DNA of 64,000 nt from a virus (IMGVR_UViG_3300022917_000010:687-64686); one strand, 5' to 3'; positions 9,999 through 61,887 are shown, counted from the first letter of the stretch. Notes: a model not told the origin generated them from the sequence alone. Numbers and translations are program-made.

Positions 9999-10196
9999 TC
10001 ATCGCTTGCGAGCCTCCAGCATGGCGTCGGCGTCGATATATGCAAGCATGGCCCGGTCCGCCGGCGTCGCCTGACCCGGGTCATAGGCGTCGCGCGATGC
10101 CATCCCCGCAAGCACCTGCGCTGCGAAGTAGTCGCGCAGCGTCATGCCGTCGTGAGCTTCGCATGGGAATGCATGGCCGCCGTCTTTCTCGCTCAT
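9999..10196 (-). CDS. Conserved small phage protein
   Basis: GHAFP...GMTLRDYFAAQVLAG...AYIDADAMLEAR family. Confidence 0.75.
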   Translation of the reverse strand: MSEKDGGHAFPCEAHDGMTLRDYFAAQVLAGMASRDAYDPGQATPADRAMLAYIDADAMLEARKR

Positions 10197-10419
10197 CACA
10201 ACACCTCGAATATGAGTTCCGCGACCTCGCGGTAATAAACAATCATCATGAAGCACAGGGCCATCCAGGCCGCGAACGCCACGCAGGCGAAGGTCTTAAC
10301 CATCTCGAGTCCTTCCATAGTCGGAGCCTCGAATTTATCCCCTCGCCAATCAATCAGGTATCCGTATGAACCCCGTGATGCACACATCGCAAACGCCCGC
10401 AAACGCTAGATGTTACTGT

Positions 10420-38870: not shown

Positions 38871-39781
38871 CCGCCGATGATCCGGCCGCCACCGCCGCCG
38901 CTAAGAGATGGAGGAGTGATGGTGATGTTGCTCGCGCGACCATAGTCAATAGAATTGGTTGCCGTGATGCCGTTGGTGACCGCCGTCACGTCGCGGAATG
39001 AACAATAATTGCATGTAGCCCCGCCTCCGCTCAGGGTGAGCGTCACGCTATTGTTTGGTGCAGTTGTTGCAAAACCTGTCCAAGCGTTGACGCCCCCACC
39101 TGAAAATACAAGCGACCCCGTGACCGTCCAGTTGGTGGCATTTGAAAAAATGAGATAGTTTGGGGCCTGAATATTGAAGGTGCCAATCGTGGGGCTACTA
39201 CCTTGCATACTAGTAGCGCCGCCTACAGCCGTTCCTTGCAGAGTCACAACATTGTATGTGAAGGTGCCAAGGTTCATTGTTACTGTTTGATTTTGTGCAA
39301 CGCCTGCAATCGAACGAACCGTTGATGTATTCGCGTTAAAGGTGAGGTTGGTGGCTCCATTCTGATTCCAGCCGCTGCCGCCGCCAGTATTGCCGACCGT
39401 CCAAGTGCTGGCGCCAAGATTTAGAGTTCGCGTCCCGGCTCCGGTGTTCGCTAAGTTGCCAATGTCAACTGACGCGGTATCGCCAGAATTACCAAGCGTG
39501 CCGGTAAACAGATTCATTGTGAGCGTGCCAACCGTCCAGTTGACGTTGCGCGTGATTGTGCCGCCGCCAGAGGATGCATCGAACGTGGCCGTGTCCGCTC
39601 CGGAGTTGGGCCAGCCGCCTGCCGCCGCGCAAGTGCTGGCGCTGCCACCCGTAGCATTTGACCATTTCGTGGTGTCGTTGATATTGCCGGTGCCGCCGAC
39701 CCAGAAACATGCAGCAGCATTGGCGACATTCGGCGCCCAGCACGCGAGCGCGAGAAGGAAAAGGCCGAAGAGTTTGTTCAT
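38867..39781 (-). CDS. Signal-peptide-bearing beta-solenoid-like protein
   Basis: MNKLFGLFLLALACWAPNVANA|AACFWVGGTGNINDTTKWS; Thr/Asn/Gly repeats; ends GGGGGRIIGG. Confidence 0.65.
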   Translation of the reverse strand: MNKLFGLFLLALACWAPNVANAAACFWVGGTGNINDTTKWSNATGGSASTCAAAGGWPNSGADTATFDASSGGGTITRNVNWTVGTLTMNLFTGTLGNSGDTASVDIGNLANTGAGTRTLNLGASTWTVGNTGGGSGWNQNGATNLTFNANTSTVRSIAGVAQNQTVTMNLGTFTYNVVTLQGTAVGGATSMQGSSPTIGTFNIQAPNYLIFSNATNWTVTGSLVFSGGGVNAWTGFATTAPNNSVTLTLSGGGATCNYCSFRDVTAVTNGITATNSIDYGRASNITITPPSLSGGGGGRIIGG

Positions 39782-39791
39782 GGCGATGCCC

Positions 39792-40925
39792 TCACGGTGC
39801 CTGGACGTATTTGAGAACGCCAGCGAGCGGCGTTGCAGCGGATGTAATTAGGCATAGACCGACGTTTGTTCCTGCCGTCTGCGCGACGGCGACCTTGCCG
39901 CCGGCCTGCAGAAAGATTCCGCTGTTGGCCGCGAAGTTCGGCCCGTTGGCTGCGGTAGTGCCGCCGATGACACCCGCCGTGCCGGTGCCGCAGGTGCCGC
40001 CCGTGCCCTCGACGATGCCGATGTTGTCCGCCGCCGCCGATGTCAGGAACAGCGAACAAATGTAGGTCTTGTTGCTTGCGGATGCCGCGACAATTTGAGT
40101 CGTGGTTGCCGTCGTAATGCTGATCGGCAACGATGTCTGGAGGTTGGCTTCGCAGGGGTCGATGATGGCATTCCGCGTGCCGTCACCAGATCGAGATGGG
40201 AGCGGAGTTGCCGCCGCGACGCCGACAAGATTGCCGCCAGAGTTGAACCCGAAGTAATTGGCATTGGCTGGAACAGCCGCCGCCGTAGCGCCGAGGCCCC
40301 AGTTCGCCGCGGTGCCCGGATTGCTCAGGAACGGCGTCATGGATGCGATACCCTGCACCGTGACGACTTCCGTCGATGCCGTGCCAGCCGTGCCCACAGC
40401 CGCGCCTGCGACCGTCGAGCCGGTACCGGAGTTCTTGGCAATGGCCACCGGCGACGAGCTGGCGAGAGCCGCCTGCCCGTTCGCGTTGGTATTGCTCACA
40501 ACAACCGTTGGATAGCCATTCGCGCTGCACTGCACCGCGGAACCTTGGCCGTTCGTCAGCGTGATCGGCGTCGAATTATAGATGCACCCCGTAAGCAGCG
40601 AATTGGACGCGGCGGTGCCGGCAGCGACCGTTCCCCTCATTGTGAGGAGATCGACCCAGGAACCCGCAGCGAAGGCCCCGGACAGGAACGACCCGCTGGC
40701 AAACGCGCTGGCCGCCCCCTGAATGAACAGAGGCGATCCGCTAACGCCGATCTGCGTGCCAGTGGCATTGACCAATGCGTGCCCCGGCGCCTGCACCCCC
40801 GACCCGACATCCACCGACCTCATCGTGACCCCGCTACCCGGCGTCAAGACAATTGCGTTGTCGGCCGCGACCGCGGCAGAGGCCCACAAGGAGCCGATCA
40901 GAAGAATTGAGAGAAGCTTTTTCAT
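39792..40925 (-). CDS. Signal-peptide-bearing fibre-like protein
   Basis: MKKLLSILLIGSLWASAAVA|ADN; Ala/Gly/Thr-rich shaft; C-terminal beta-sandwich with 4 Cys. Confidence 0.65.
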   Translation of the reverse strand: MKKLLSILLIGSLWASAAVAADNAIVLTPGSGVTMRSVDVGSGVQAPGHALVNATGTQIGVSGSPLFIQGAASAFASGSFLSGAFAAGSWVDLLTMRGTVAAGTAASNSLLTGCIYNSTPITLTNGQGSAVQCSANGYPTVVVSNTNANGQAALASSSPVAIAKNSGTGSTVAGAAVGTAGTASTEVVTVQGIASMTPFLSNPGTAANWGLGATAAAVPANANYFGFNSGGNLVGVAAATPLPSRSGDGTRNAIIDPCEANLQTSLPISITTATTTQIVAASASNKTYICSLFLTSAAADNIGIVEGTGGTCGTGTAGVIGGTTAANGPNFAANSGIFLQAGGKVAVAQTAGTNVGLCLITSAATPLAGVLKYVQAP

Positions 40926-40935
40926 GACCGTTTTC

Positions 40936-41109
40936 CTAGAGAGCCCCGATATACTGGCTGTTGCAGGCTTGCGAAAAATCGAGAGTGTTGGAGCATCCCC
41001 CACCGCCGCCAGAACCAGACCTGCCGGGGCCGGGGAACGGGAAGAACTGTGCGAGCGCCGCGCCCGCCCACGCCGCCAATGCGAGCGCCAAAACCAACCG
41101 CTTTATCAT
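40936..41109 (-). CDS. Secreted mini-peptide
   Basis: MIKRLVLALALAAWAGAALA|QFFPFPGPGRSGSGGGGGCSNTLDFSQACNSQYIGAL; 4-nt overlap with the upstream gene. Confidence 0.65.
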   Translation of the reverse strand: MIKRLVLALALAAWAGAALAQFFPFPGPGRSGSGGGGGCSNTLDFSQACNSQYIGAL

Positions 41110-41960
41110 CGCGTAACCCTCCAATTGAGGGTGACAGCGCCTGGCGTGATCGAGGATGAGGTCGGGTTGCAAACCTTGAAGTTGACGTTGTTGGCGGTCG
41201 GATATGGATATATCGCCAGCCCGCCCGTCGTCACCGGCGCGTATCCCGTCACCGCGGTAATGTCAGCGTTGGGTGTGAAACTGATCGTGTCGGTCGTGGC
41301 CGTGTTCGTGGCGGTAGCCGTGACCGCCGTGGCGCACGCCCCCGACGTGATCGCGCTGGTCCCAAGGACCGCCGTCCCTGCAGCGATGGTCTGCGTCGAC
41401 CCGCCAGCCGCAGAAACAGCCGCAGCGAGTTGAGCTGCCACACCAGTCCCGAGGCCGGTAATGCCCGCAATCGGCAGTCCCGTGACGTTGGTCAAGGTGC
41501 CACTGGAAGGCGTCCCGAGGGCCCCGTTAAAGAGAACCGGCGCGCCCGCGGACCCGATATTGACCGCCAGCGCCGTCGCGACGCCAGTGCCCAAGCCCGT
41601 GATGCTGCCGATCGCCGGCGTGCAGGTCGCCGCGGAGATCGCCGTCGTGAGCCCCTTCGCGTTCTGCGTGGTGGTGATGCACGACGTTGCGCTGCCGAAG
41701 GTGCCGACGTTCGCGTTCACCGTGGCGAGGGTAAGAGCGCCCAGCCCCGTGGCTGCGGCGTCCCCCGACATCAGGCCGTAGACATAAGCGGCGTTCTGCG
41801 CCGCGGTCCCCTTCCGATCAGCGCCGCCCTGCACCACGTAGAACAGTTCGGTGCCACCAAGCGCGCTGGCCGCAGTCAGCGCCGTGACGGTGCTATCAGC
41901 CGCTTTGGCCGGCGACAGGAGAGCCAAAAGGCCCGCCGCGATCAGTAAATGACGTCGCAT
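41106..41960 (-). CDS. Signal-peptide-bearing fibre-like protein
   Basis: MRRHLLIAAGLLALLSPAKA|ADSTVTALTAASALGGTELFYVVQGG; ITGLGTGVA repeated twice. Confidence 0.7.
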   Translation of the reverse strand: MRRHLLIAAGLLALLSPAKAADSTVTALTAASALGGTELFYVVQGGADRKGTAAQNAAYVYGLMSGDAAATGLGALTLATVNANVGTFGSATSCITTTQNAKGLTTAISAATCTPAIGSITGLGTGVATALAVNIGSAGAPVLFNGALGTPSSGTLTNVTGLPIAGITGLGTGVAAQLAAAVSAAGGSTQTIAAGTAVLGTSAITSGACATAVTATATNTATTDTISFTPNADITAVTGYAPVTTGGLAIYPYPTANNVNFKVCNPTSSSITPGAVTLNWRVTR

Positions 41961-42187
41961 CAGCAGCCTCCCGCGCGGCAAACCTTACTCGCGCCATCGG
42001 TTTGAAGAAGAAAGGAAGTGTCATCGACGAGGAGGATCTTGCCAGTCGGGACTGGAACCGAGCCGCCCGGCGTCGTCACGCCCGGGCCATTGATACCGCC
42101 CGGGCAGAACCCGCGGCCGCATTTGTTGAATTGGGCGAACGCCGCCCCTGAAAGAACCAGCAAAATTAGCACAATGAAAGTTTTCAC
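41960..42187 (-). CDS. Secreted mini-protein
   Basis: GTG start MKTFIVLILLVLSGAAFA|QFNKCGRGFCPGG...KVCRAGGC. Confidence 0.6.
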   Translation of the reverse strand: MKTFIVLILLVLSGAAFAQFNKCGRGFCPGGINGPGVTTPGGSVPVPTGKILLVDDTSFLLQTDGASKVCRAGGC

Positions 42188-44018: not shown

Positions 44019-44491
44019 TTAATGACCATCGCCCGCCCTCGCGTTCATCGCATCGACCTCAGCCTGAGAGTGGCCTGTCTCCGCCGCCCATTCGGCTAAA
44101 ATCCTCCGGGCCTCTTCCGGACGCATCGCCAGGACGGCGGCCTCTACGCGGCTCTTAGCCCTGCTGGCGCGCTGATTCGCCCGCCAGTCCAACCCGGCCG
44201 CCTTGGCCCGCGCGCGCCGATCGTGGCGGCTCATAGCATCACTTCCGCGCGGCGCCGGGCCAACTCACCCATATGCCGGGCTTTCTCCGCAATCTTCGAC
44301 GGCCCGCCGCACATCATATCGATATAGCGGGTCACATTCGGCTCACCGGCGATATGATAGGTGGCACGGATCGTTCGAGTTTCGGGCTGGACCACCTCAA
44401 GCTTATCCAGCAAAACCCGATGACCACAGCGGCGCAGAAACGCCAAAGATGCAACTTCCTCGTTGAACCATTCGCTCATCACTGGCTCCAA
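44019..44491 (-). CDS. Two small hypothetical ORFs (44019-44234, 44231-44479/44491)
   Basis: Coupled to the terminase large subunit. Confidence 0.45.
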
Positions 44492-46035
44492 TGCGACCCT
44501 TTGCGCTTCCCGAACTGTTCCCGACGATAAACCACATCAGGCTGCATTCCCATCGCGATCTGCTGGAAGGCGTCCGCGCCGTGGTCGAACCCGTTCTTGG
44601 CCGGCTGCGCCATCCACTGCATCGTCGTCTTGTTCCACGCGCGGGTATAGTTATCGAGACATTCGACCAGATCGCCAGCGTAATCCGAGCAGAACCAGCT
44701 GTTATTGATAAACCGACGCCCAGCCTCAATCGAATCCGCCTTGTCCCCTACCCGGTCGACCACGATAAAGTCGACGCCGTGCTCAGCCGCCACCTCTTTC
44801 CGACTCTGTGCGGTGACGCCGGTCATATTCGACCAGTCCCGGGTATTCAGATCGTGCGGCCCGTAATGCTTGCCGTAGCGCCAGTTCCGCGTCTCCGCCC
44901 GCTGCTTGAGAATGCGAAGCCCATCCGCCAGGCCCGCGCTATCGCCGCGCGCAAAGTCGATATGCCGATGCCGCACGCCGTCTGTCTGCATGAACCCGAT
45001 GGCCAGGTTGCCATCCATCCCGAGATCCCAATAGGTGTGGACCGGTCGGCTATCGTCATACGGAACCGGATACCCCACGCGCTTATCCCGGCGCGCGGCG
45101 TTCATCTCGTTTTTCCAGTAGGCGCCCTCGAGGGAGGCAAAGAAACACTCGTCCGGCGTCGACGGATGCTCGCTTCGCATGTCGTCAGGACCGAGCGTCT
45201 CCCGGACCTTGACGTACCAAGCCTGCTGCTCGCCATCGGTCGCGATGCCGTGCTTGACCCGCAACTCCTCGAAATACTCCCGCATATCACCCGGAATAAA
45301 TACCAAGTTGATCGGCAGCCGATTGGCCGGGTTCATATGCCAGCCGTAGAAATGCAGCCGGAAATCGCGCTGGGTCAGCCGCTGGCGCGACGCCTGCAAC
45401 TGCTCCCCGGCCTTCACCAGATCGAAGAACTCACCCGAGGTGCCCTTGGCGGTCGATTCCACCCATATCTTGCCGTTGATCGGCACCGATTCGATGGTGC
45501 CCGTCTTGATTTCCTTGGCGATCAGCGGGGATTTAGCCGATATCGGCCCGTATTCTGAAATATGCAGCAGCTGCGGAGTATCGCCGCGGTAGGACGTGCC
45601 GGCGACGATCTTGGAGCCGTTCTGCCACTTCAATTCCTCTTGGTTATCAATGACCAGCGGCATCCCCTGCCGCAGCGACGCCGGCATGCGCTCATAGGCA
45701 AACTTGGCCATCGCCAGCTTGGCCTTGGCATCGTCCAGCGTCTGGTCGATGATCCCGGCCGTGGTGTTGGAGGCAAATATGCAGGCGTCCAGCATCCGAA
45801 TGCTGATGAAGGTCGAAAACCCGAGCTTGCGGCTTTTCAGGATCGTATCCCGGAACCACTCCCGGCCGGCATAATGCGCCTGCGCCGCGTTGAGCCGGAA
45901 CGGCACGGGCAAACCGTCCGCATTCTTGATGGCGTAGAGATTGTTGAGGCGGAAATTCCGGTCAGCCAGCTGCGCCTTTGACGCTTTCCATTCCCGGGTA
46001 TCGCGTACCGCCTCGAGCGCTGATGCGTCGCTCAT
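44479..46035 (-). CDS. terL: Terminase large subunit
   Basis: Walker A KSRKLGFST, Walker B LHISEYG, ESTAKG, nuclease YWDLGMD, GPHD, DHGADAF. Confidence 0.95.
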   Translation of the reverse strand: MSDASALEAVRDTREWKASKAQLADRNFRLNNLYAIKNADGLPVPFRLNAAQAHYAGREWFRDTILKSRKLGFSTFISIRMLDACIFASNTTAGIIDQTLDDAKAKLAMAKFAYERMPASLRQGMPLVIDNQEELKWQNGSKIVAGTSYRGDTPQLLHISEYGPISAKSPLIAKEIKTGTIESVPINGKIWVESTAKGTSGEFFDLVKAGEQLQASRQRLTQRDFRLHFYGWHMNPANRLPINLVFIPGDMREYFEELRVKHGIATDGEQQAWYVKVRETLGPDDMRSEHPSTPDECFFASLEGAYWKNEMNAARRDKRVGYPVPYDDSRPVHTYWDLGMDGNLAIGFMQTDGVRHRHIDFARGDSAGLADGLRILKQRAETRNWRYGKHYGPHDLNTRDWSNMTGVTAQSRKEVAAEHGVDFIVVDRVGDKADSIEAGRRFINNSWFCSDYAGDLVECLDNYTRAWNKTTMQWMAQPAKNGFDHGADAFQQIAMGMQPDVVYRREQFGKRKGSHWSQ

Positions 46036-50200: not shown

Positions 50201-50629
50201 CTATTTCGCCTCCTGTATCGCAACACCATTTTCGGCCGCCTTGCCCTTCACGATGCCGATCAAGTCGACGACTTCGTTAAATACAACGGCCGCGTTCACC
50301 TGATCGTTCCTCTTTACGAACCCGCGCAGCCGCGCCAGGTAAGGCGGTATCTGCCGCGTGTAGACCTGCACCATGCGGATTTGCTCGACACAGCCCGCGT
50401 TCAGCGTCCCAGCCTCGCAGGCGTCGCGCCATGCGTTAAGGCCGGCGAAGACCAGCACCGCGCCGGCCTCGACCTTCCGCAACCGTTCGTTGGTGACGGG
50501 ATTGGCGACCGAAGCCGTGCCGAGTTCGACCAGCGTGGGGAGCTTGCCGAAGAATTGGCAACCGCCCTGCGGCAGCGCGAGAACCGCGAGAAGCGAAAGT
50601 GTGACGGCGATATGGGCGATGCGGCGCAT
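50201..50629 (-). CDS. Lipoprotein (o-spanin candidate)
   Basis: MRRIAHIAVTLSLLAVLALPQGG|C lipobox-like. Confidence 0.6.
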   Translation of the reverse strand: MRRIAHIAVTLSLLAVLALPQGGCQFFGKLPTLVELGTASVANPVTNERLRKVEAGAVLVFAGLNAWRDACEAGTLNAGCVEQIRMVQVYTRQIPPYLARLRGFVKRNDQVNAAVVFNEVVDLIGIVKGKAAENGVAIQEAK

Positions 50630-50637
50630 GGCGGCTC

Positions 50638-51114
50638 CTATGCTGCGGATTTGACTTGAGGGCTCACGGTTGCGGCCGCCAATTCCGGATCGGCCACCTT
50701 GATATCACTCACCACCTCCGGGAGCGACGCCGCGGCGTCCAGTATCGCCACCTTGGCCTCCTTGCTCGTCGGGATGGAGTTATCCTGCGCGACCGCCTTG
50801 GTCGCCTCGATCAGCGCTTTCTGCGCATCGACGGATTCCACACTCTTTTCGCCGGTAGCGATCTGCTGCACCTGAGCGATCTGATTGGACGTCGATGCGC
50901 TGCGCGTAGCCTGGATGCCGCCATAGACGACGCCAATGGCTGCCACGAGCTGAATGAGGGTGTTGATCGTGCTGCCCATGCTTTCGATGACCGTCTTGAC
51001 GGCGGCCATGTCGACCCCCTTGGCCTGTAGCCCGAAAATGGTAACCGCCACGCCGACGGCGGTCCCGACATGCCGCGTGGCCGCGTTAACCTCAGACTGA
51101 GTTGGCAATCTCAT
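50638..51114 (-). CDS. Holin-like membrane protein
   Basis: Two N-terminal hydrophobic segments; directly after the endolysin. Confidence 0.55.
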   Translation of the reverse strand: MRLPTQSEVNAATRHVGTAVGVAVTIFGLQAKGVDMAAVKTVIESMGSTINTLIQLVAAIGVVYGGIQATRSASTSNQIAQVQQIATGEKSVESVDAQKALIEATKAVAQDNSIPTSKEAKVAILDAAASLPEVVSDIKVADPELAAATVSPQVKSAA

Positions 51115-51129
51115 GATGCAAAATCCCTT

Positions 51130-51915
51130 CTAGGACTCGTTGCGTGAAATCTTTCCGTCGCTTTTTACGATAGGCAGGCTCGAAAAGCCAATCTTGGATG
51201 GGAGCGGCACACCAGCCGGCCACCAGAAGCCTTTATTGAGGCGGGATTTGGCAAATGGCTTGATATTCACCGCGTCGGACTGATTCCCACCCAAAAGCAT
51301 GATATTGCCGTGCTGGTCCGCGCCGACCACGATACCGATATGGCCGCCGCCATCCCGCAGCATCGGAGCGAAGGCCCCAACCGCCGGCCCGAGCAACTTG
51401 ACCGAGGGCCACTGACCGGCGAAATCCAGCGCCCACAGTGATTCGGTCCCCTTCAAGCCCGCCTTCGTCAGGCAATGGTTGGCAAAAAGCGCGCACCACG
51501 GGATTGAATCGTGCGTGTAAGTCTTGGCGATATTGCCGCCCTCGTCTTTCGCCCAATCGATAATCAGGGAATTGTCTTTGACGCCGAGCGTTTCCTTGAC
51601 GCCGATCAGTTTGAGGCCGGCCTGGAGCCACAGCGGCCGCTCGACCTCACCCCCCGGCGCCGGAGGCGCGGCCAAATCGCCAGCCAGAGCCTTATCGATC
51701 GCGGTAGCGGTATCATTGCCCACCACCCCATCCACCGGCTCGCAGCCCGCGCGCTTCTGGAAATCCTCCACCGCCGTATCGGTGCCGTTCCCGAAATACC
51801 CGGTGCCGCTCAGCTTGTAGCCGAGCTTTGCGAGCGCGACCTGTATCTCCTTGACGATCGGCCCGGACGAGCCGAGCCGGAAATATGTCCCTTTGGGTAC
51901 GGACTGCGAAAGCAT
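51130..51915 (-). CDS. Endolysin: PG-binding domain + TIGR02594/NlpC-P60-like peptidase
   Basis: LGSSGPIVKEIQVAL...VDGVVGNDT; PWCALFANHCL, GGHIGIV, LGGNQSDAV. Confidence 0.92.
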   Translation of the reverse strand: MLSQSVPKGTYFRLGSSGPIVKEIQVALAKLGYKLSGTGYFGNGTDTAVEDFQKRAGCEPVDGVVGNDTATAIDKALAGDLAAPPAPGGEVERPLWLQAGLKLIGVKETLGVKDNSLIIDWAKDEGGNIAKTYTHDSIPWCALFANHCLTKAGLKGTESLWALDFAGQWPSVKLLGPAVGAFAPMLRDGGGHIGIVVGADQHGNIMLLGGNQSDAVNIKPFAKSRLNKGFWWPAGVPLPSKIGFSSLPIVKSDGKISRNES

Positions 51916-51928
51916 GATGCGCTCCTGT

Positions 51929-53191
51929 TTAGAATTCGATAGCTATGCAAGTAGCGTTGCTAATTATCAGCGTGTTCGCACTCGTTAGTCGCGACAGATC
52001 AAACCAATACTGCGTTGCCAGCGAGAGCCCGGTAACAACAGCCCTTAGAGATATGGGGACAGAACCGCTGGCGACAGCAAAGGCCGTCGCTAACGACGTA
52101 CTCGCCTGAGTGCCAGTAACCGCCACGTTCGCTGCCGGTGCCGCGCCGCTCCCGTATCGCAGATCGAATGTGCCGGTATTCGGCACCGTATTGTTGGATG
52201 CGACAAATTGAATGGTGATATCCATTCGGCCATTGAGGACCGGCGTCAAAGTACATCCGTTTTGACCAAACCCCGACATCACCCCCGTAGCCGATGTGGT
52301 GTTAGCCGGGGAGGCCGGGCTTACCTGCACCACCGCGTTAGTGAATGCCCGCGCTACGGTGCATGTACCCGTCACAGTGATCGTGCAGGTTCCAGTAACC
52401 GTGATGCCATTGCCAGCGGCGACCTGCGCGCTGGTTACCGTTCCGGTTCCAGGCAGCGTCCACGACGGAATACCAGAAGCATCTTCCTGCAGAACCCGCG
52501 TGCCAGAGTTATTGCCAGCAAGGCAGACCCAATTCGTGCCGTTGTAATAGACCAGATCACCGGCGCGCGTCGGTGGGCAGTTATGCGCTGCGTTCTGGAG
52601 CCCCTGCTGCGTACCAGCACCGGAGCCGCCCCGCGCGACCGATAGCGTCCCGGTCCAACCCAGCGTAATCGATGCCGCGTTCACCAGCGCGACCGTCGGG
52701 CTGCCGCCGAGCGTCGCAGTCACGTTCGTATCGTCGGTTTTCGTCAGCGCCGCACCAGTGCCCCATGCCGGGCATGCTCCCACGCCGCCCGAGCGCAGCA
52801 CCTGCCCAGTCGCGACGTCCGCAATTCGGGAAAGCGTCGTGGTGCCGGTCGCGCACAGGATATCGCCTATGGCATAGACGTTCAGGCCAGTCCCGCCTCC
52901 AACGATACCCAAGACCGCATAGCCGGGATCCGCGCCAGCGCCGGAACTCACCCAAGGCAGCCCCGCCGTACCAGGCCCGACGATCGCCCAGCCGGACGCG
53001 CCGCGCTCAATGATGGCTCCGCGGGTCGACCCCAGCGCGCGGTCAAGGATCGCAGTAACGGTCTCCGCGCGCGCCGGCCGTGTCGCCGCTGACGAGTTGC
53101 CCATAACCTGACCAGCAGCAGGCTGTGATTGCGCGTGCGCGCCCCCGGCCAGCGCCAGCCAAGCGACTGCCGCGAATACCGCCCTTCTCAT
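51929..53191 (-). CDS. Signal-peptide-bearing tail fibre
   Basis: MRRAVFAAVAWLALAGGAHA|QSQPAAGQV; fibre repeats GGTG, GDIL, GQVL, GTVTS; 8 Cys. Confidence 0.7.
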   Translation of the reverse strand: MRRAVFAAVAWLALAGGAHAQSQPAAGQVMGNSSAATRPARAETVTAILDRALGSTRGAIIERGASGWAIVGPGTAGLPWVSSGAGADPGYAVLGIVGGGTGLNVYAIGDILCATGTTTLSRIADVATGQVLRSGGVGACPAWGTGAALTKTDDTNVTATLGGSPTVALVNAASITLGWTGTLSVARGGSGAGTQQGLQNAAHNCPPTRAGDLVYYNGTNWVCLAGNNSGTRVLQEDASGIPSWTLPGTGTVTSAQVAAGNGITVTGTCTITVTGTCTVARAFTNAVVQVSPASPANTTSATGVMSGFGQNGCTLTPVLNGRMDITIQFVASNNTVPNTGTFDLRYGSGAAPAANVAVTGTQASTSLATAFAVASGSVPISLRAVVTGLSLATQYWFDLSRLTSANTLIISNATCIAIEF

Positions 53192-53640
53192 GATTCCACC
53201 TCGTAACCATCGCCGGCCAGTTTCGGCTTGAACGTCTTCGCGTCGTAAGCATCGACCATCGGGTAGGACGCCAACCCATCAATCAGTTCAGCCGCCGTCC
53301 GATTGACCGAAATACCGTTTGGATTGGCGTTTATCGCCTTCACGGTGAGCGGCCTATTGGTACGGGATACCGCGGCCGCTGTCTGAATGACCACCGCGCC
53401 GCCTGTCGTATCGACCTCGAGAAGATAATCCGTCGGCAACACCGTATATGGCGACATGGCAAAGTTGACCGCCGTCGGCACGACCGCTGCCGGCGTGACC
53501 GAGGCCGTAACCACGTTGGCCTGCACCGCCTCGATCGCACGCTGGACGTCGATCGCGGCCACGCCGGGCGACGGGCTATAGGAAACATTCCTCGCCGCAG
53601 CGATCGGAGAAACCCGCAGATCGGTTTGAATGACTGACAT
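53188..53640 (-). CDS. Tail fibre adaptor/short structural protein without signal peptide
   Basis: Start MSVIQTD at 53640; ATDVQAAI-like AIDVQRAIE; YTVLPTDYLLEVDTTGGAVVI. Confidence 0.6.
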   Translation of the reverse strand: MSVIQTDLRVSPIAAARNVSYSPSPGVAAIDVQRAIEAVQANVVTASVTPAAVVPTAVNFAMSPYTVLPTDYLLEVDTTGGAVVIQTAAAVSRTNRPLTVKAINANPNGISVNRTAAELIDGLASYPMVDAYDAKTFKPKLAGDGYEVES

Positions 53641-54731
53641 CACAAAATCCGCAGGTAAGGGATAAGCCCGATCGTCGGCATCACAAAAGGTGTTGCCGCC
53701 CCGCTCGTATTGTTCGACGTGACCGCGATTGCGTTTGATCCACTGAAAGACCATGAGTTCGCTAATACACCGCCAGTCGGACCCGACGTGGCGCCAGCAG
53801 TGTTCACACTCGGGTTGATAATTCCATTGCCATACATGAAGCCCGTATTTGGGCCTGAGACCGTGATGCTGTTGGCCCCGTTTGATGTGATCCCAGTCGG
53901 GAGTTGCGCAAGCGTCAGCGCCCTCCCTTCGACACCATTGGCGCAGACAGCGCCCACCAATGTCATGGCTGTTCCGCAGCCAGTCGCCGCATTCGTTAGG
54001 CGGAAAGCGGAATTCCCATTGAGAGTATCCAGCGCTGCCACCACGCGCCCCCGCATGTCGATGATGGCGAACTGCCCGCCGGGGCACCCGCCACTCGCAG
54101 GGAACCCCTGCTGCGCCCAATAGGCTGCGTAAGTCGTCGTCGAAATGCACTGCCCCGACGGCGCCACAAAATTGCTGCTGGGAGGCAGCGTCGACGTTGA
54201 CCACAGAATACCGCCCAGCGGCGTCCCGGTATTGCCATAACCGGCCTCGAGCAGCCACGCGCTATTCGACGCGCTGAATGCCACCCGATAGGGTGAACCA
54301 GAGATCAGCGCCCCGGCCGGAATTGTCGTTCCGCTAAGCCAGAGCGGATACGCAGTTCCACCATCCACCTGCAACGTCGGGGCCGCCCCGCTGGTCACAT
54401 GCGCGATAAAGGACAGCATCTGACCATTGACCGGCGTGGTGTTGACGCCTTCCAGCGTCGCCAGAGCATAAGCGGTAGACGTTCCGGTCGTGGTATTCGC
54501 CCCGCTGATATCCGACCGCCACGCGGCCAGCACCGCCATCATGGCGCGCGCTGAATCATTCACCGCCGACGGCGCCATGCCCTCCGCCCAATTGATCGAC
54601 GGATCGGCAGTCGCGTTCGTTGAGGCCGTAGTCGACCACTGCCAGATCGCCGCTTTCAGGCTGCCTGCGCCCAGCGCCACCGATATCGACAGAACAGCGA
54701 GGACGAGAAATTCAATTGTCCGACGTCGCAT
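53640..54731 (-). CDS. Tail fibre with tail-collar domain, preceded by a signal peptide
   Basis: MRRRTIEFLVLAVLSISVALGAGSLKA|AIWQWSTTASTNATADPSINWAEG; collar-like PLGGILW...PSGQCISTTTYAAYW...FAIIDMRGRV. Confidence 0.75.
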   Translation of the reverse strand: MRRRTIEFLVLAVLSISVALGAGSLKAAIWQWSTTASTNATADPSINWAEGMAPSAVNDSARAMMAVLAAWRSDISGANTTTGTSTAYALATLEGVNTTPVNGQMLSFIAHVTSGAAPTLQVDGGTAYPLWLSGTTIPAGALISGSPYRVAFSASNSAWLLEAGYGNTGTPLGGILWSTSTLPPSSNFVAPSGQCISTTTYAAYWAQQGFPASGGCPGGQFAIIDMRGRVVAALDTLNGNSAFRLTNAATGCGTAMTLVGAVCANGVEGRALTLAQLPTGITSNGANSITVSGPNTGFMYGNGIINPSVNTAGATSGPTGGVLANSWSFSGSNAIAVTSNNTSGAATPFVMPTIGLIPYLRIL

Positions 54732-54732
54732 T

Positions 54733-55455
54733 TTACACCCCAATTCCGTATGCCTTGGCCAGCGCCGCGGCGATCTGTTGACTTTGCCCCATCATCGGCT
54801 GGGGCATCTGGATATTTTGCAGCGGCGCATATTCAGGCTGCTGCGGTGCCGCTGGTTGCCCGCCCTGCGACGGATTCAGCGCCGACGCCAACTTGTCGAG
54901 GGCCGACGGTGCCGGCGCGCCCGACCCGACCGCTGGAACCTCCGTAACCGTCGAGGTTGGGTTGATCGGACTGACCGGATCGACCGGCATGGCCTTGGCC
55001 GCCAGAGCGCCCACCGGTGCATCGACGCCGAGCAGCTTCGCAGCCGTGCTCATGTGGCCGGTCATTTGGGAATTCACCTTGTCGGCGACCGTGCCAGGCA
55101 TGCCGCCGTTCGCCGTGTCGCTGCGGTTATACAGCCCCGGCGCGCCGGCGTTGATCGTCGAATAGATATCCATGAGGCCCATGCCGGGCTTTACGCCGCG
55201 GTCGCGCAGGAAGTTCTCGACCGCCTGCATCTGTTCCGGTGCGGTCTGGCCCTCTTTCACGCCGTATTTCGCGCGCTCAGCCTCGCCGAATTGGATAAGC
55301 CCCAGATGATTGTTATTTTTGCCGCCCCAGAGGTTCGGATCGAACTTCCCGCCCGTCTCATAGGAGATCGCCGTGCCTATATGCAGCGGGTCTACCCCGA
55401 GCCGCTTCGCGGAGGCTATGATGGCCGCAGCCAGTTCCGGGTTCATGGAGGCCAT
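54733..55455 (-). CDS. Virion-associated lytic transglycosylase-like ejection protein
   Basis: ISYETGGKFDP...GLIQFG...DIYSTINAG lysozyme-like fold. Confidence 0.7.
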   Translation of the reverse strand: MASMNPELAAAIIASAKRLGVDPLHIGTAISYETGGKFDPNLWGGKNNNHLGLIQFGEAERAKYGVKEGQTAPEQMQAVENFLRDRGVKPGMGLMDIYSTINAGAPGLYNRSDTANGGMPGTVADKVNSQMTGHMSTAAKLLGVDAPVGALAAKAMPVDPVSPINPTSTVTEVPAVGSGAPAPSALDKLASALNPSQGGQPAAPQQPEYAPLQNIQMPQPMMGQSQQIAAALAKAYGIGV

Positions 55456-55612
55456 CTTGCTGATAATCCTGCTTTTCGCCGTCCTGCTCGTCCTGAAACT
55501 CGCCGCTATTGGCCTTGTATATCATTTTGGGGCCGCCAGCGCCCTTATCGTCATCGCCGCGTGCATCCTAATCGCTCACCGAATCGAACCTACCGCTGGG
55601 AAGCCGGTATAG
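55445..55612 (+). CDS. Antisense-oriented two-TM small membrane protein
   Basis: MEAILLIILLFAVLLVLKLAAIGLVYHFGAASALIVIAACILIAHRIEPTAGKPV fills the gap between two ejection genes. Confidence 0.5.
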   Translation: MEAILLIILLFAVLLVLKLAAIGLVYHFGAASALIVIAACILIAHRIEPTAGKPV

Positions 55613-58600
55613 CCTGCCCGACCAGCGCGGGAACACGCGAAACCGGCGCAGGGGCGCGCTTCGGCTGCGCCCCATAGAATAGCCGGACCGCCTCCCGCTT
55701 CGCTTTCCCCTCTTTTGCCGCCTTCCCGAGTGCGTCCAGGCCATACCCGACAGCCGCGCCAGCCGGCCCATGCGTCGCAAAACCTAGCATCGTCATCAGG
55801 TTGTTCGTCGCGCCCTTCAGTATCTTGGCGCCCATCGTCGCGCTGCCCGACGGGTTCGTGGTTCCAGCCATCGGCACCTGGCGCCGGAAGATAGACGCCA
55901 GCTTGGCCATCTCGGCGCGCTCCGCCGTCGTGTTCGCCACTTTCGACACGCCACTTTCGAGATAATCCGAAAGGCGCTTCGACTTTTGCAGCGCGGTGAA
56001 CTCGTTGTGCCCCGCCGGCGCGTTCAGCAGATCGTCAAAGATGCCCTGCCGGACTTGCGTCCAGCTTTCCGGCTTGAGATTCGTCTTGAGGTGCGCCAGC
56101 AGCCGCTCGGCATCGCCGCCGCCGCTGGTGATCATCTTCGTTACCTCGTCGACCGTGGCCGGAACTGAACCATCGGCGCCCGATATGCGCGCGACCTGCT
56201 TGGCAAGCGTCGTGGCCGGCTTCTCGCCCGGCTCAATGCCGCGCAAGCTCCGCGAATAGGCCGAGATCCCCGCCCGATCGTCCGGCGTCAGGATCGTCTT
56301 GCCCCAGCTTGTATTCAGGAAGTCATCCAGCCGCTTCGCCCGCTTGGCCGGCGACAGGCTGGCATCATCCACATATTTGAATGCCCCAGCCTTCCACTGC
56401 GCATATTCCGGCGACTTCTCACCCAGCACCTTTTGCAGCCGCAGCCCGACCTTGACCGAGTTCCCGGTCCCCGGGTTGGACTTCGGACCATAGGACAGCT
56501 TCAGGATATCCTCCGGCGTCGCTGCGGTATCCTCATATCGGCCGAGTATTTTTTCGACGGCGCGGCCGGTTTCATCGCCGGGCCCGCGGCTCGAGAACGT
56601 CTGCCGATACTCCGCATGCGACTTGCGCGCGGCGTCTTGCAATTCCTTGGCCAGTTTCGCGTCGCCGGTGAACTTGCCCGAGGCCAGCGCATCGCCAATC
56701 ACATTGTCGAATTCGCTCAGGATCTTGCCCATCGCGCGCATGTCGGACTTGTCGCCAGAGCGGATGGCCGCCGATTTGGCGTCGCTAAACATCGTCACGA
56801 GCCGCTTGCGCGCTTCATCCATGGTTCGGAGATCGACCGGCTTGGCCGCCGCTGGCGCCGCCTTCTCCGCCACGCGGTCGCCCGGGAAGTCAGAAACCGC
56901 CGCGCGCGCGCCGCCTACCGCGTCTTCCGGCTCCAACTGCCGGAAAGCGGTCTCAACGGCGTCATCGGCAGACATGCCCTCCTCGCGCATGATCGCCGTC
57001 GCGCGCGCCTTGACGTCCGGACCGAGCCCACTGTGGCCGGCCGCCGCCAGATCCTCCTCAAAGCCGCGGTTGATCTGCTCGTTTGCCGCCTGCTCGCGCG
57101 CACTGGTCGCGCCGATCTCGCGCTTGCTCTTGAACCCCTCATGGCCGGCAGGGAATACCTTCTGCCCGCGCAATTCCGCGTCAATCGCGTCAAGAAACTG
57201 CGCCGGCGTCGACGTGCCGCCATCGGTCCCGCGCAAATAGCCTGCCTCTTCCGCCGCCTCGCGCATGCGGTCGATATCCGAGCCGTTCTTGCGGACAACG
57301 CCGAAAAAACCCTTCTGGCCTGGTATCTGCGCGCGATGGCTCTGGTTGAGGCCGATCGCGTCGAGCTCGCCATGCGGACTAAGCCCACCTTTGGAGGCGA
57401 TGAACTCGACCAGGCTTAGCGGCGGAAGCGCGTTCTGCTTGGCGTAGGCATCCGCAACGCTATCGCCAAACTTCGCCCGCAGCGCCGCCACGGTCTCATC
57501 TTCCGTCGCCTTGGCCGGAACTATCGGCGCGGCCGCCTGCGCCGCAGGAGGCGCTTTCGGCACCACGGCATTCTCGAACATGCCGCTATCTTTGCCCACG
57601 GTCTGGTCGATCAGCTTCAGCGCCTTGTTGGCCACCGATTCATTCGTCGGATCAACCCAGATCGGATTCTCGCCAGCATTCAGCCGCGTCCGGATATCCT
57701 CCGCCATGCCGCGCGGCACGCTTTCATCGAAAGTTCCGGGAACCGCGTCCCGCGCCTTGTAAGCCTCGCGGGTAGCCGCCACCTTAGCGTCACGTCGCGC
57801 GGCGACGGCGGCCCCGACACTCTCCGCCGCATCAAACGGAGAGGCCGGGGCCGCGCCCCCACCAAGGCCGCGAGCCAGGGTCTCCCCCTCTGCCCCGACC
57901 CGGGAGATCGCCGACGCTTCGGCAGCCGCCCGGGCCGCCTCCTGCGCCGCTAATTCGGATTGTACGAGTTGAGCCGCCGCCGGTGGCGCGGTGCGAGGAA
58001 CCGCCCCGGACGGATCAAGCGACTGCGAAATGCCGGCCGACGCCTCAGCCAATGCCTTCTGCGCTTCCTCATCGGCCTGCCGCGCGATCGCCTCCGCAGA
58101 CGCCCCGCGCGCGCCGCGGCGCATGATCTCTTCCTCCGCCTGCGCCACCGGATCGGCCGTAGCCTGCCCCGTCGTCAGCGGAACCTTGACGCCAGCGACC
58201 GTTTCGACGTTCTGCGGAACCACGGGAGGCGGATTCCGATAGTCGCGCACCGCCTGCACGCCCTTGCCGACCGCGCGCGCCGCCAGCGGGGCGACCGCGC
58301 CCACCGCGCCGCCGATCGCCGCCGGAGCCACAATATTCTCGCCGCGCACCGCCGCGTCAGCCGCACCGAGCGCCGCATTGGATGCCGCGCCGCGCATCAC
58401 CATCTGCGGCAGCGGACCGGTCAGCCCGAACGCCGCCGGCGCAGCCATCATCATCGGAATGGAACCAGCCACGCCACCAGCAACCTTGGCCGCGGTATCC
58501 ACGATCGGATGCTGCTCCTCGAAACGCTTGTCCATCCCTTCCTGAATGGCCAGCGATTCCTTGCGCCGCTCAGCGAACGTCTTGCCCTTGAGTTGGTCCT

Positions 58601-58877
58601 TTTCATCGAAAAGCGGGTTCAGCACCGGCGCCAGTGCGGCATTTGTCGCAGCATTGGCCTGGTTGAGTAGGCCGCCCACCACCGGGACGCCCGTGGCGGC
58701 CGCGCGCGCGACCTGGTTCGGCGTCACCGGATCCGCTTCCGCCTCTTTGGGCGCCGCCGCCGTCACGCCGATCGACTTGGCGATATCCGAGACCGCAGCA
58801 TTCTGCTGCTCAGGCGACAGCTTCAAAAAGCTATCGTCGACCGTCACCGATTTGTCGCCAATCGTCAGCGTGGGCAT
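55590..58877 (-). CDS. Large DNA ejection (internal virion) protein
   Basis: 1095 aa, Ala-rich helical, N-terminal PTLTIGDKSVTVDDSF, position matching P22 gp16. Confidence 0.75.
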   Translation of the reverse strand: MPTLTIGDKSVTVDDSFLKLSPEQQNAAVSDIAKSIGVTAAAPKEAEADPVTPNQVARAAATGVPVVGGLLNQANAATNAALAPVLNPLFDEKDQLKGKTFAERRKESLAIQEGMDKRFEEQHPIVDTAAKVAGGVAGSIPMMMAAPAAFGLTGPLPQMVMRGAASNAALGAADAAVRGENIVAPAAIGGAVGAVAPLAARAVGKGVQAVRDYRNPPPVVPQNVETVAGVKVPLTTGQATADPVAQAEEEIMRRGARGASAEAIARQADEEAQKALAEASAGISQSLDPSGAVPRTAPPAAAQLVQSELAAQEAARAAAEASAISRVGAEGETLARGLGGGAAPASPFDAAESVGAAVAARRDAKVAATREAYKARDAVPGTFDESVPRGMAEDIRTRLNAGENPIWVDPTNESVANKALKLIDQTVGKDSGMFENAVVPKAPPAAQAAAPIVPAKATEDETVAALRAKFGDSVADAYAKQNALPPLSLVEFIASKGGLSPHGELDAIGLNQSHRAQIPGQKGFFGVVRKNGSDIDRMREAAEEAGYLRGTDGGTSTPAQFLDAIDAELRGQKVFPAGHEGFKSKREIGATSAREQAANEQINRGFEEDLAAAGHSGLGPDVKARATAIMREEGMSADDAVETAFRQLEPEDAVGGARAAVSDFPGDRVAEKAAPAAAKPVDLRTMDEARKRLVTMFSDAKSAAIRSGDKSDMRAMGKILSEFDNVIGDALASGKFTGDAKLAKELQDAARKSHAEYRQTFSSRGPGDETGRAVEKILGRYEDTAATPEDILKLSYGPKSNPGTGNSVKVGLRLQKVLGEKSPEYAQWKAGAFKYVDDASLSPAKRAKRLDDFLNTSWGKTILTPDDRAGISAYSRSLRGIEPGEKPATTLAKQVARISGADGSVPATVDEVTKMITSGGGDAERLLAHLKTNLKPESWTQVRQGIFDDLLNAPAGHNEFTALQKSKRLSDYLESGVSKVANTTAERAEMAKLASIFRRQVPMAGTTNPSGSATMGAKILKGATNNLMTMLGFATHGPAGAAVGYGLDALGKAAKEGKAKREAVRLFYGAQPKRAPAPVSRVPALVGQAIPASQR

Positions 58878-60370
58878 CAGTTAACGCTCCACTGGATTTT
58901 CTGGCCGCCGACGTCGACAGTTCCAGCGCGACCGCCCGAGGCCGCCGCCGGGCGCTGCTGCGGAATGGGGCTGCGACCCTTCTCGACTTCCGTGATCGTA
59001 TATTGCAACTCGCGCTCCAACTGATCGAGCTTCGACCGCACCGTTTTCGTCGTATCCCACGGCTGCAGCTCATAGCGGCTGACGTAGTTCTGAGCCTCCG
59101 ACTGCGACATGCCGGCGCCCGTGAGGTTGCGCAACAGTGCTTCGGCACCGCTTTTGATCTGCCGGTTCAGTTCGCCAGCCCGCCCGACGCCAGCCTTGGC
59201 CTGAATCGCGTCCCACGGCCCGGTCGCGTCGCCCTTCTCAATATCGCGCCGGATATCCGGCAATTGGCCGAGGAACGACTTGGCGAGCCCGAGTCGCGCC
59301 GAAACCTCCGGCGTGACCTTCTCGCCTGGACCGCCCGGGATCGCGACGAGGCCAGCATCCGGATTCTTCGGATCTACCCAGCGATATCCCGACGGCGCGG
59401 CGTTCTTCTCGCCCTTTTCGCGCAGATAGTCCGGATCCGCAGGCCCGCCCTTGATGAAATGCAGCGTGCCGTCAGCGCGCTTCTCGAACCCGGCCGGCGC
59501 CTTCTCATCCTTGGAGAAGTCGCCCAGCACCTCGAGGCCGCCGCCAGGCTTCTCACGCACGACATGCCCGCCGACGACCAGCGGCTTGCCGGTCTCGAAA
59601 TACTTGCCGATCATGGCCTTGAGCAGATCGGGATTGCGCACCGCCGCGCGGACCTCAGCCACCGGCGCGCCGCGCGCGAGCAGCGCCTGCGCCGTCATAT
59701 TCTGCTGTTCCGCCTGCATCGCCAGCGCCTCGCGCTGTTTCAGCATCGACGCGGCCACGCTGTTATCGCCCTGCAGCGCAGCACCCGCGGCCAGCAGCGC
59801 TGGCGCCATGGACTGCGCGCCCGAATTCAGCCGGCTCATAAACGACGGTTCCGCGGCCGGCGGCGCGGCAATGCTCATCGGCGCGGCCGGAGGAGCCGCA
59901 GGGGCCATGGGCGCGGGAGCGGCTTCGCGGTTGACCGAGCTCATATCGGTGGAGACCGGCCGCGGCCGCGGCGTCGGGATCGCACCAGGCGGCAGCGGCT
60001 CCGGCTCAGCTTTGGGCGCGTTGGCCGTCAGGCTCTTGGCCATCGCCAGCGACGGCGGGACCATGCCGAACGGGGAACTATCGGGCGCGCCCGCAGGCGT
60101 GGCACCGGGGAAGCCAGTCCCGGCAGGCGATTGCTCGAGCGCAAGCTGTACGCCCGCGCTGTTCATGTCCGGCATGCCGAACGGGTCAATCCGGCGCTGG
60201 TTGGCGCGGGTCATCCGCTGCCCAGCCGCCTCGCGCGCAGCCTCAGCCAGCGCGGCCTCATCCGGCGGCCGCGGCGCGTCAGGGAATGGCGAGGCCGGCG
60301 GGGCCATCATCGGCGGCTGCCCGCCAGATTGCAGGTTGGCCAGCAGTTCCTCGAGCCAAGTTCCGGCCAT
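58877..60370 (-). CDS. DNA ejection protein
   Basis: 497 aa; Pro-rich N-terminus; APSGYRW...GLVAIPGGP motif; LTGAGMSQSE. Confidence 0.7.
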   Translation of the reverse strand: MAGTWLEELLANLQSGGQPPMMAPPASPFPDAPRPPDEAALAEAAREAAGQRMTRANQRRIDPFGMPDMNSAGVQLALEQSPAGTGFPGATPAGAPDSSPFGMVPPSLAMAKSLTANAPKAEPEPLPPGAIPTPRPRPVSTDMSSVNREAAPAPMAPAAPPAAPMSIAAPPAAEPSFMSRLNSGAQSMAPALLAAGAALQGDNSVAASMLKQREALAMQAEQQNMTAQALLARGAPVAEVRAAVRNPDLLKAMIGKYFETGKPLVVGGHVVREKPGGGLEVLGDFSKDEKAPAGFEKRADGTLHFIKGGPADPDYLREKGEKNAAPSGYRWVDPKNPDAGLVAIPGGPGEKVTPEVSARLGLAKSFLGQLPDIRRDIEKGDATGPWDAIQAKAGVGRAGELNRQIKSGAEALLRNLTGAGMSQSEAQNYVSRYELQPWDTTKTVRSKLDQLERELQYTITEVEKGRSPIPQQRPAAASGGRAGTVDVGGQKIQWSVN

Positions 60371-61477
60371 TTATGCGGCCTCCGCCAACTTGCCGACGCG
60401 CGCTCCGCGCGTGGCCTTGCCATAATCGACCATCAGGAAGCCCGAGGGATGCCGCGCGACCGCTTCCGGCTTATGCTCGATCACTTCCTGCGCCATCAGG
60501 CCGAGGCGGGGCACCGGATCCCCCTTGTACCGATACGAATAGACATTCTGGCCATCGTTGAGCTTGCCGACCGGCGCAATATCTTCCTTCAGGCGCTCAT
60601 CCGAGAACGCCATCAGCGCGCTCGCTGCGCCGAGACCCTTGCCAAATACACCCATGCCGCCGCTGATCGTATCCAGCCACGACGGGTTGCTCGTCTGTGT
60701 CGACGTGCCCTGGCCTTGGCTGTTGCTCCCGAGGCCGGCCAGCGCCACCGACGGCTGCAGCAGCTGCGCCAGATTCTGATACGGCTGGGAATAGGCCGTG
60801 TTCGCCGCGCCGAGCCGCGCCGCGTCGCCCGAGGCATAGAGTCCAGGCAGCGCGCTCGCGCCTTGCAGTCCTGCGAGCATGTTCGTGAAATCCGACTGCC
60901 GCAGGTTCGTGATCCCCGATGCCGTCGACCCAGCACCGGCGAATAGATCGCGGTTCGCACCCGCCATGTTCGAGTAATTCTGGTTGAACTGGTTCGCGAT
61001 CGTCGGCGCGACGCCCTGCGTAATGCCCCGACCGAGCGAACCGGCGAACGACCCCGCGCCGGACGGATCCCGCCCCGAGCCCGCATAGACGCCCTTCGTG
61101 GTCCGCGTCGCATCGTCGATCGCGGTCCGGATCGCATCGCCGAAACCCGGCGTTTCGTATGGATTGAGATTCGCGCCGCTTGCCGTCGCGCCGAGGTTGG
61201 TTTTCATCGTGTCATAGGCGCCCTGCAGCATTCCCACCTGCGGCGAGCTATCCGAAGAGAACAACTTCGAAATCGCATCGGCACCGCTTGCCCCGAAATT
61301 CGGCAGGTTCGACAGCGAATTCTTGAGGCCAGCCAGCGCGCTCGATTGGTCCCCGGTGACGCCCGTGCTCATCCCGCCATATTGGCCCAGCAACTGGCTG
61401 ACCAGCGGCATCGCCTCTTCCCAAGGGCGCGTCTGGCTGGACTGAGTCTGTTGCGTCTCTTTGCTGCTGCTGCTCAT
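60371..61477 (-). CDS. DNA pilot/ejection protein with C-terminal peptidase S74 chaperone-like domain
   Basis: MSSSSKETQQTQSSQTRPW; FSDERLKEDI...VYSYRYKG...GLMAQEV...MVDYG. Confidence 0.8.
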   Translation of the reverse strand: MSSSSKETQQTQSSQTRPWEEAMPLVSQLLGQYGGMSTGVTGDQSSALAGLKNSLSNLPNFGASGADAISKLFSSDSSPQVGMLQGAYDTMKTNLGATASGANLNPYETPGFGDAIRTAIDDATRTTKGVYAGSGRDPSGAGSFAGSLGRGITQGVAPTIANQFNQNYSNMAGANRDLFAGAGSTASGITNLRQSDFTNMLAGLQGASALPGLYASGDAARLGAANTAYSQPYQNLAQLLQPSVALAGLGSNSQGQGTSTQTSNPSWLDTISGGMGVFGKGLGAASALMAFSDERLKEDIAPVGKLNDGQNVYSYRYKGDPVPRLGLMAQEVIEHKPEAVARHPSGFLMVDYGKATRGARVGKLAEAA

Positions 61478-61887
61478 AGAACCTTCTCCAGCCGGACCGA
61501 TCGCACCCGATAACCCTCGAGAACCCGCTTCCAAGCCTCGCGACCGTCCAAAACGACACTAACACAGCCCTCAGCGCGCGCATATTCTTCGATCTTGACG
61601 TGGAAGCGAGACCAGTCCCGCATCCGATCGCCGCCGCACTGGCACATCCAGCACACCAGCCCCGAGCGATGCTTGACGAGCTCCGTGGTCATAGCCGCGA
61701 TAATGACCCCGTTCGCGTCCTCGATCGCCACCCACAACAGCGTCTTGCCGCTGGCAATCCGGTCAAGAATATCGGCGGGCATCAACTCATCGCAGACCGC
61801 AAGCCCCGATTCGATCATGTCCGAAACCCGGGGCCAGATTTGCACCGCAGTCCCAGGCTCAACCGCTTCGACAAGGACAGCCATCAT
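61474..61887 (-). CDS. GNAT-fold-like virion assembly protein (P22 gp14/T7 gp13 position)
   Basis: IWPRV...LLWVA...CGGDRMRDW...IEEYARAEGC...GREAWKRVL. Confidence 0.65.
   Translation of the reverse strand: MMAVLVEAVEPGTAVQIWPRVSDMIESGLAVCDELMPADILDRIASGKTLLWVAIEDANGVIIAAMTTELVKHRSGLVCWMCQCGGDRMRDWSRFHVKIEEYARAEGCVSVVLDGREAWKRVLEGYRVRSVRLEKVL

Follow-up and report, generated by a model that had tools for sequence, protein, structure and literature searches.

In the 64,000-nucleotide stretch of viral DNA analysed here (the window; bases 687-64686 of the 65,235-bp single contig that constitutes the phage genome IMGVR_UViG_3300022917_000010), a tail fibre gene encodes a protein whose presumed anchor domain is directly preceded by an N-terminal extension with all the sequence hallmarks of a translated Sec/signal peptidase I (SPase I) signal peptide. 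The fibre is probably exported and cleaved, a claim founded on the co-variation of the signal with cysteine residues across the family and on the N-terminal register that the predicted cut would restore. The initial annotation had placed a signal peptide immediately before a fibre motif and had put the gene at the usual fibre position after the ejection genes; both placements were confirmed, and the gene order is syntenic in relatives.

Signal peptides were called with our own heuristic, based on the layout of the n-, h- and c-regions and on hydropathy. In the window fibre (Table 1), the h-region reaches a Kyte-Doolittle mean of 2.86 over its best 11 residues, and the predicted SPase I site lies between A27 and A28. 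The 120 best homologues, which are 48-75% identical and come mostly from metagenomic contigs of 62-67 kb, all have an N-terminal extension of 22-47 amino acids (aa; median 24). The n-region is net positive in 117 of these (net charge +1 to +3), the family h-core has a median hydropathy of 2.97 and a minimum of 2.29 (10-residue window), and the longest uncharged stretch spans 11-21 aa. Counted back from the fibre motif, Gly is found at -7 in 109/120 sequences and Pro at -4 in 106/120, while Ala, Val or Leu at -3 and Ala, Ser, Thr or Gly at -1 occur in 115/120 each. As no other reason for the -3/-1/-4 pattern is known, it points to cleavage by SPase I. The initial annotation had also raised the possibility that homologues generally carry the same hydrophobic extension unprocessed: close homologues do carry it, but a conserved cleavage motif precedes their fibre motif.

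The extension drifts, with a mean pairwise identity of 44% among the 120 homologues compared with 74% for the next 48 residues. Shine-Dalgarno (SD)-like motifs are found upstream of its ATG in most of the relatives whose DNA was available. Differences in the signal region are distributed over codon positions as in coding sequence (position 2 < position 1 < position 3), a weak indication since the region is near saturation. Of the codons ATG, GTG and TTG, a single in-frame instance lies between codon 2 and the motif, the GTG at codon 18; codons 28-29 read GCG ATC, and neither a start codon nor a Met is conserved at the junction among homologues. With the extension conserved as protein and no such junction start codon, an internal start for the main product, the other doubt raised at the outset, is unlikely.

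Other types of N-terminal signal were considered and rejected. The window protein has the RR of a twin-arginine translocation (Tat) signal, yet most homologues start MKK or MIRN. A lipoprotein signal is contradicted by the absence of Cys at +1 (0/120) and a prepilin signal by the absence of Gly before the h-region. Finally, the fibre h-core is strongly hydrophobic, whereas signal-anchor-release (SAR) domains are weakly so.

The domain behind the signal was recognized through phrog_30879, with residues 28-74 matching profile positions 3-49 of 64 (E = 1.6e-10); since the match begins at profile position 3, the family motif begins two residues past Met. Residues 28-66 are exactly the peptide quoted in the initial annotation, which took this motif for the usual extreme N-terminus of fibres. 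This holds for three cultured phages and for about 130 prophage and viral loci that begin there. In the translated window protein, the anchor domain, present as a single copy in the genome, is preceded by 27 residues and would become terminal only after the predicted cleavage. Mapping of the extension by clade, which had been suggested as a check, separates the 120 nearest homologues, all with the extension, from about 130 more distant ones that begin directly at the motif and belong mostly to 42-46-kb phages and Bradyrhizobium prophages.

In signal-less fibres, exactly two residues lie between Met and the first aromatic residue in 86 of 116 cases, and the second residue is Thr, Ala, Pro, Ser or Gly in 106 of 116. 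Methionine aminopeptidase removes Met before a small second residue, so Met should be removed from the signal-less fibres. The predicted cut in the signal-bearing fibres would leave [A/S]-[I/F/V/M/L]-[W/Y]-x-W-S, which is the register of the Met-excised signal-less fibres. The two sets have the same majority residue in 31 of 46 anchor columns, and the 20 columns that are at least 90% conserved in both all hold the identical residue. This argues that the anchor domain still binds the same partner as in signal-less fibres. The partner would be the tail, as suggested by the position of the domain, its conservation and its mosaic distribution over fibres of 245-627 aa.

Presence of the signal is correlated with four cysteines. 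C195, C216, C252 and C263 are found in 120, 119, 120 and 120 of the 120 signal-bearing fibres, respectively, whereas none of 69 signal-less homologues contains the four. In the latter, position 195 is occupied by Ala (66), Pro (2) or Glu (1) and position 216 by Asp (69), while positions 252 and 263 correspond to alignment gaps in 66/69 and 69/69. Among the IMG/VR fibres, the number of cysteines is always even when a signal is present (2, 4, 6 or 8) and mostly 0-1 when it is not (p = 9e-11, uncorrected for relatedness); a lone C-terminal Cys occurs in 28 of the 69 signal-less fibres and in none of the 120 signal-bearing ones. That the signal and two cysteine pairs occur together supports real export, and disulfides would be expected at 195/216 and 252/263. 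In the window, the signal-less structural proteins encoded at 54733-61534 and 53188-53640 on the minus strand (240, 1095, 497, 387 and 150 aa) have no Cys, and every signal-bearing protein has 4-13. Across the signal-bearing loci, exported-looking open reading frames (ORFs) number 1 of 84 upstream of the fibre, as opposed to 16 of 72 downstream.

A search of 1.84 billion cluster representatives with residues 28-105 (E ≤ 1e-3) gave 2551 matching clusters. Among the best 150 of these 2551, the domain start is bimodal, at residue 2-8 or at about residue 20-36 in roughly half each, and the proteins are 74-627 aa long; this spread of lengths suggests a conserved anchor on exchangeable distal parts. 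Bacterial genomes (mainly Bradyrhizobium and Xanthobacteraceae) contain 2 signal-bearing loci and 67 full-length signal-less ones. In IMG/VR, 18 signal-bearing genes are distributed over 16 loci, most of them on contigs of 62-67 kb, and 63 loci are signal-less, mostly on contigs of 42-46 kb. A 62-kb sister phage (L105) has the same neighbours and gene order, but its fibre (9998-11017) starts MAFWQWS right past the upstream stop, has a canonical collar and lacks the signal, all four cysteines and the inserted Cys loop, implying that signal and cysteines are exchanged as one module.

Two further arrangements were observed in the family. A 67-kb relative (L089, 8946-12200) encodes three tandem fibre paralogs, each with its own signal peptide and with 6, 6 and 8 Cys. 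In a distant signal-bearing subgroup of 421-606 aa (P0127, P0134, P0138, P0140, P0142 and others), a Cys stands right before the W-x-W motif (e.g., ...AAC-W); it would be at or adjoining the mature N-terminus and does not fit a lipobox.

The closest cultured counterparts are signal-less. In Bradyrhizobium phage ppBeUSDA76-2 (WAX24428.1), Microcystis phage Mae-JY35 (XAI96525.1) and an ORF of Rhizobium phage RHph_Y1_10, the motif is located three to four residues past Met. These fibres resemble the window fibre in the N-terminal motif, the shaft, the collar region, the C-terminal strand and the position after injection and lysozyme-like genes, but they start at the motif (MTGVFSWS, MSNIYNWD and MSSIFDWS) and have a canonical collar, 0-1 Cys and no Cys loop. 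In comparison, the window fibre has a signal of 27 aa and four conserved cysteines in addition. The fibre ORF of RHph_Y1_10 (L002, 2998-3699; MN988487.1) is unannotated and extends past the end of the circular record, where a short opposite-strand ORF is annotated instead.

Modelled fold and synteny indicate that the window protein is a genuine tail fibre, composed of an anchor, a beta shaft, a modified collar and a variable tip, with the collar assigned by homology and fold. The AlphaFold2 (AF2) model of the fibre, with a predicted local distance difference test score (pLDDT) of 80, has a helix at residues 2-20 and a second one at 59-75, followed by beta-rich domains. Foldseek relates it to the fibres of cyanophage A-1(L) (8kec, 1.4e-4) and Pa193 (9b45, 4.8e-4) and to T4 gp10/gp12, at low TM-scores (template modelling scores), which are expected when an elongated trimer is modelled as a monomer. 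The tail-collar domain named in the initial annotation is upheld by homology and fold but not by Pfam, as Collar (PF07484) gives no match on the window fibre even at E ≤ 10. The same profile matches the homologues P0087 (55% identical, 4.5e-14), P0121 (5e-15) and P0122 (3e-22) as well as signal-less relatives. The miss is likely due to the change of the collar at two Cys positions, from GQAIS...GDG..F.LPD in signal-less fibres to GQCIS...C.GGQF..ID in the window fibre. In the distal part, the homologue consensus has no majority residue over about residues 283-340.

Table 1. The fibre gene, its parts and its immediate neighbours, in window coordinates
Feature	Coordinates	Strand	Basis or remarks
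Fibre gene, 363 aa	53640-54731	-	ORF
Signal peptide, residues 1-27	54651..54731	-	MRRR n-region, hydrophobic h-region, c-region GAGSLKA
N-terminal (presumed anchor) domain, residues 28-75, begins AIWQWS	54507..54650	-	phrog_30879
Beta-rich shaft, residues ~80-165	54237..54494	-	AF2 pLDDT >90; Foldseek 8kec, 9b45, T4 gp10/gp12
Modified tail-collar-like domain, residues ~172-230, with C195 (54147-54149) and C216 (54084-54086)	54042..54218	-	Alignment to signal-less relatives
Inserted loop with second cysteine pair, C252 and C263	53943..53978	-	Invariant in 120/120
Variable distal part, residues 264-363, with conserved C-terminal strand	53643..53942	-	Homologue consensus
Lysozyme/transglycosylase-like internal virion protein, 240 aa	54733..55455	-	PHROG matches: peptidase, baseplate hub, transglycosylase
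gp10/gp9-like adaptor-fold protein, 150 aa	53188..53640	-	AF2 pLDDT 76 and Foldseek; translationally coupled to fibre
Second fibre-like protein, 420 aa, own signal peptide (predicted cleavage after AHA), 8 Cys	51929..53191	-	

The reading given in the initial annotation, of an exported docking domain and of fibre attachment outside the cytoplasm, is partly supported, and for the phage as a whole we propose the following route. The fibre would be made as a precursor with a cleavable signal, and the chain would be exported across the inner membrane and cut between A27 and A28, after which the cysteine pairs of the collar and of the inserted loop would be oxidised in the periplasm. Phage particles would be built in the cytoplasm, and the fibres would meet them and dock by the unchanged N-domain only once holin lesions or lysis merge the compartments. 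The endolysin is without an export signal; to judge from the canonical lysis pathway, lysis should therefore depend on a large-hole holin that merges cytoplasm and periplasm while the outer membrane is still in place. The whole chain, from export to docking on cytoplasm-built particles, is put forward tentatively, at slightly less than an even chance. A strict two-compartment assembly, in which Sec-exported, cleaved and disulfide-bonded fibres join fibre-less particles only between holin triggering and outer-membrane rupture (seconds), or in the lysate, is possible, though more doubtful.

Several points weigh against this route. The window fibre's own cleavage site, with L-K-A before the cut and Ala after it, is less typical in that the -3 residue is Leu, though Leu is permitted there. 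The link between signal and even Cys number may reflect few independent events: in a tree built from the 150 N-terminal residues that the fibres have in common, the best version of which shows 17 state changes, only 3 contrasts fall on supported branches, leaving a sign test powerless. The docking role attributed to the N-domain finds no solved homologue at E ≤ 1 when the family profile is compared with PDB sequences. We know of no precedent in tailed phages for assembly after compartment mixing. Disulfides can also arise in released virions without export; phage Milano offers a precedent for disulfide-rich virions (PMC10811340).

The main rival explanation takes the protein to be exported yet absent from the virion. 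A fibre-derived receptor-binding protein could act on the envelope of the infected cell, where it would mask or modify the receptor against superinfection or keep progeny off debris, and the virion would use other proteins, such as the Peptidase_S74 protein (387 aa) encoded at 60371-61534. The latter is signal-less, fibre-like or needle-like, and found in both phage groups, and the signal and cysteine evidence for export fits an envelope role equally well. Exported phage proteins of obscure role are known elsewhere; in Porphyromonas phages, signal peptides are reported on genes of obscure function (PMC10367356). Such a role is nonetheless less likely: the gene occupies the locus orthologous to that of the fibre in signal-less relatives, the genome retains no copy of the N-domain without a signal, and the N-domain, the best-conserved part of the protein, has the invariant residues of virion fibres, which is hard to explain without tail docking.

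A division into two pools appears considerably less probable. Export would be partial, virions would be built from cytoplasmic molecules, either uncleaved or internally started, and the exported molecules would serve some secondary function. Trimers that fold fast can evade post-translational export by Sec, and with Met or Val as the +2 residue in 11/120 and 15/120 homologues, respectively, translation could begin internally in a few genes. The junction of the window gene (GCG ATC) is not among these, nor is a start codon conserved there in the family; moreover, paired cysteines and the loss of the lone Cys would not be selected for in a cytoplasmic pool, and the conserved cleavage motif would be left unexplained. 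That the extension is no export signal, being instead an uncleaved tether or SAR-like anchor, a buried tail helix or untranslated sequence before the true start, is very improbable: residues 2-20 are helical in the AF2 model and translation of a shorter product from the GTG at codon 18 is conceivable, but 120 divergent homologues preserve frame, start and physico-chemical pattern, SD-like motifs precede the ATG, the -3/-1/-4 pattern is present, the strong h-core is unlike that of SAR domains, and the positive n-region would put the body outside the membrane anyway.

The genomic setting of the fibre is that of an uncultured, short-tailed phage, with genes for an HK97-type major head protein (908-2023), a portal (4760-7114) and a large terminase (44479-46035), and with DnaB-type helicase and RecT-type recombination genes in the same genome. 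The closest cultured capsid is that of RHph_Y1_10 (50% identity), and the host is probably a Bradyrhizobium-like alphaproteobacterium of soil, judging from where homologues occur. The late genes on the minus strand follow the order portal, scaffold-like protein, capsid, 568-aa structural protein (across the window ends) and Peptidase_S74 protein, then internal or ejection-type proteins of 497 and 1095 aa, the 240-aa lysozyme-like protein and the fibre. Past the fibre on the same strand are the 150-aa gene, the 420-aa gene and an endolysin (PG_binding_1 and CHAP) with small membrane proteins. This podovirus-type order of the structural module around the fibre recurs in relatives.

The fibre ATG (54729-54731) is one base past the TAA of the lysozyme-like gene, which lacks a signal and directly precedes the fibre in RHph_Y1_10 and relatives as well. 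At its other end, the fibre TGA has its A base in common with the ATG of the next gene (ATGA overlap). The 150-aa product of that gene, also without a signal, matches the KP1 baseplate (9f4b, 4e-5), the N-terminus of CBA120 TSP4 (7rfv, 6e-4) and T4 gp10 in Foldseek and is found in 11/18 signal-bearing loci and in L105. It may serve as a branching adaptor of the fibre apparatus, like the gp10/gp9-type carriers of branched receptor-binding complexes. Homologues of the 420-aa protein keep the signal peptide in L084, L085 and L088; the match to a cultured homologue (H31) falls inside a larger fibre and says nothing about the N-terminus of the 420-aa protein.

Further proteins of the window have export-related or membrane-related features. 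The lysis region (50201-51915, minus strand) encodes, besides the endolysin, a protein of 158 aa in which two segments are hydrophobic and another of 142 aa whose start (LPQGGC) resembles that of a lipoprotein. Large Cys-rich proteins with signal-peptide-like starts (970, 966, 304, about 377 and 291 aa) are encoded at 33061-41981 on the minus strand, the two of about 970 aa having their first mature residues, AFGIFQTYAP, in common. A signal-peptide-like start is also found in a 125-aa protein past the capsid genes (42-419, minus strand).

Tailed-phage assembly is taught as wholly cytoplasmic, and no precedent for Sec signals on tailed-phage fibres or tailspikes was found in the literature searched. 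Outside the tailed phages, the virion receptor-binding protein pIII (g3p) of Ff phages has a cleaved Sec signal and periplasmic disulfides and joins the particle outside the cytoplasm. It is unrelated to the window fibre in sequence and fold, is anchored in the membrane and is assembled while a non-lytic, non-tailed phage is being extruded, whereas the window phage has an HK97-type tailed particle released by lysis. P22 tailspikes and T4 fibres join finished particles late and spontaneously, without other factors; the proposed docking after mixing would need the same, but in P22 and T4 both partners are cytoplasmic.

Fibre-like proteins with signal peptides are known from a bacterium. The MAT fibres of Bdellovibrio bacteriovorus are trimeric adhesins resembling phage tail fibres, in which an N-terminal signal peptide is followed by a conserved N-domain and variable tips, with some disulfides (Caulton et al. 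2024, PMC10769870). Unlike the window fibre, they are encoded by the bacterium for prey recognition and are not virion parts, and their N-domain is not homologous. Among tailed-phage proteins, SAR endolysins and the T4 antiholin RI are sent to the periplasm by N-terminal signals (PMC8385771), but these are lysis enzymes or regulators rather than virion parts; SAR domains stay uncleaved and have a weak hydrophobicity, in contrast to the strong h-region and AxA-type site of the window fibre. The only signal mentioned in the JC1 paper is the lipoprotein signal of a spanin.

If the proposed route is true, it would add a second compartment to the assembly pathway of tailed phages. Fibre maturation would need the host Sec machinery, signal peptidase and Dsb, which would constitute new host factors and possible routes to resistance, and export would explain why some fibres are cysteine-rich. 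Cytoplasmic expression would misfold such receptor-binding proteins, which bears on their expression and on host-range engineering. Sister phages with and without the signal and the cysteines on the same fibre would provide natural controls.

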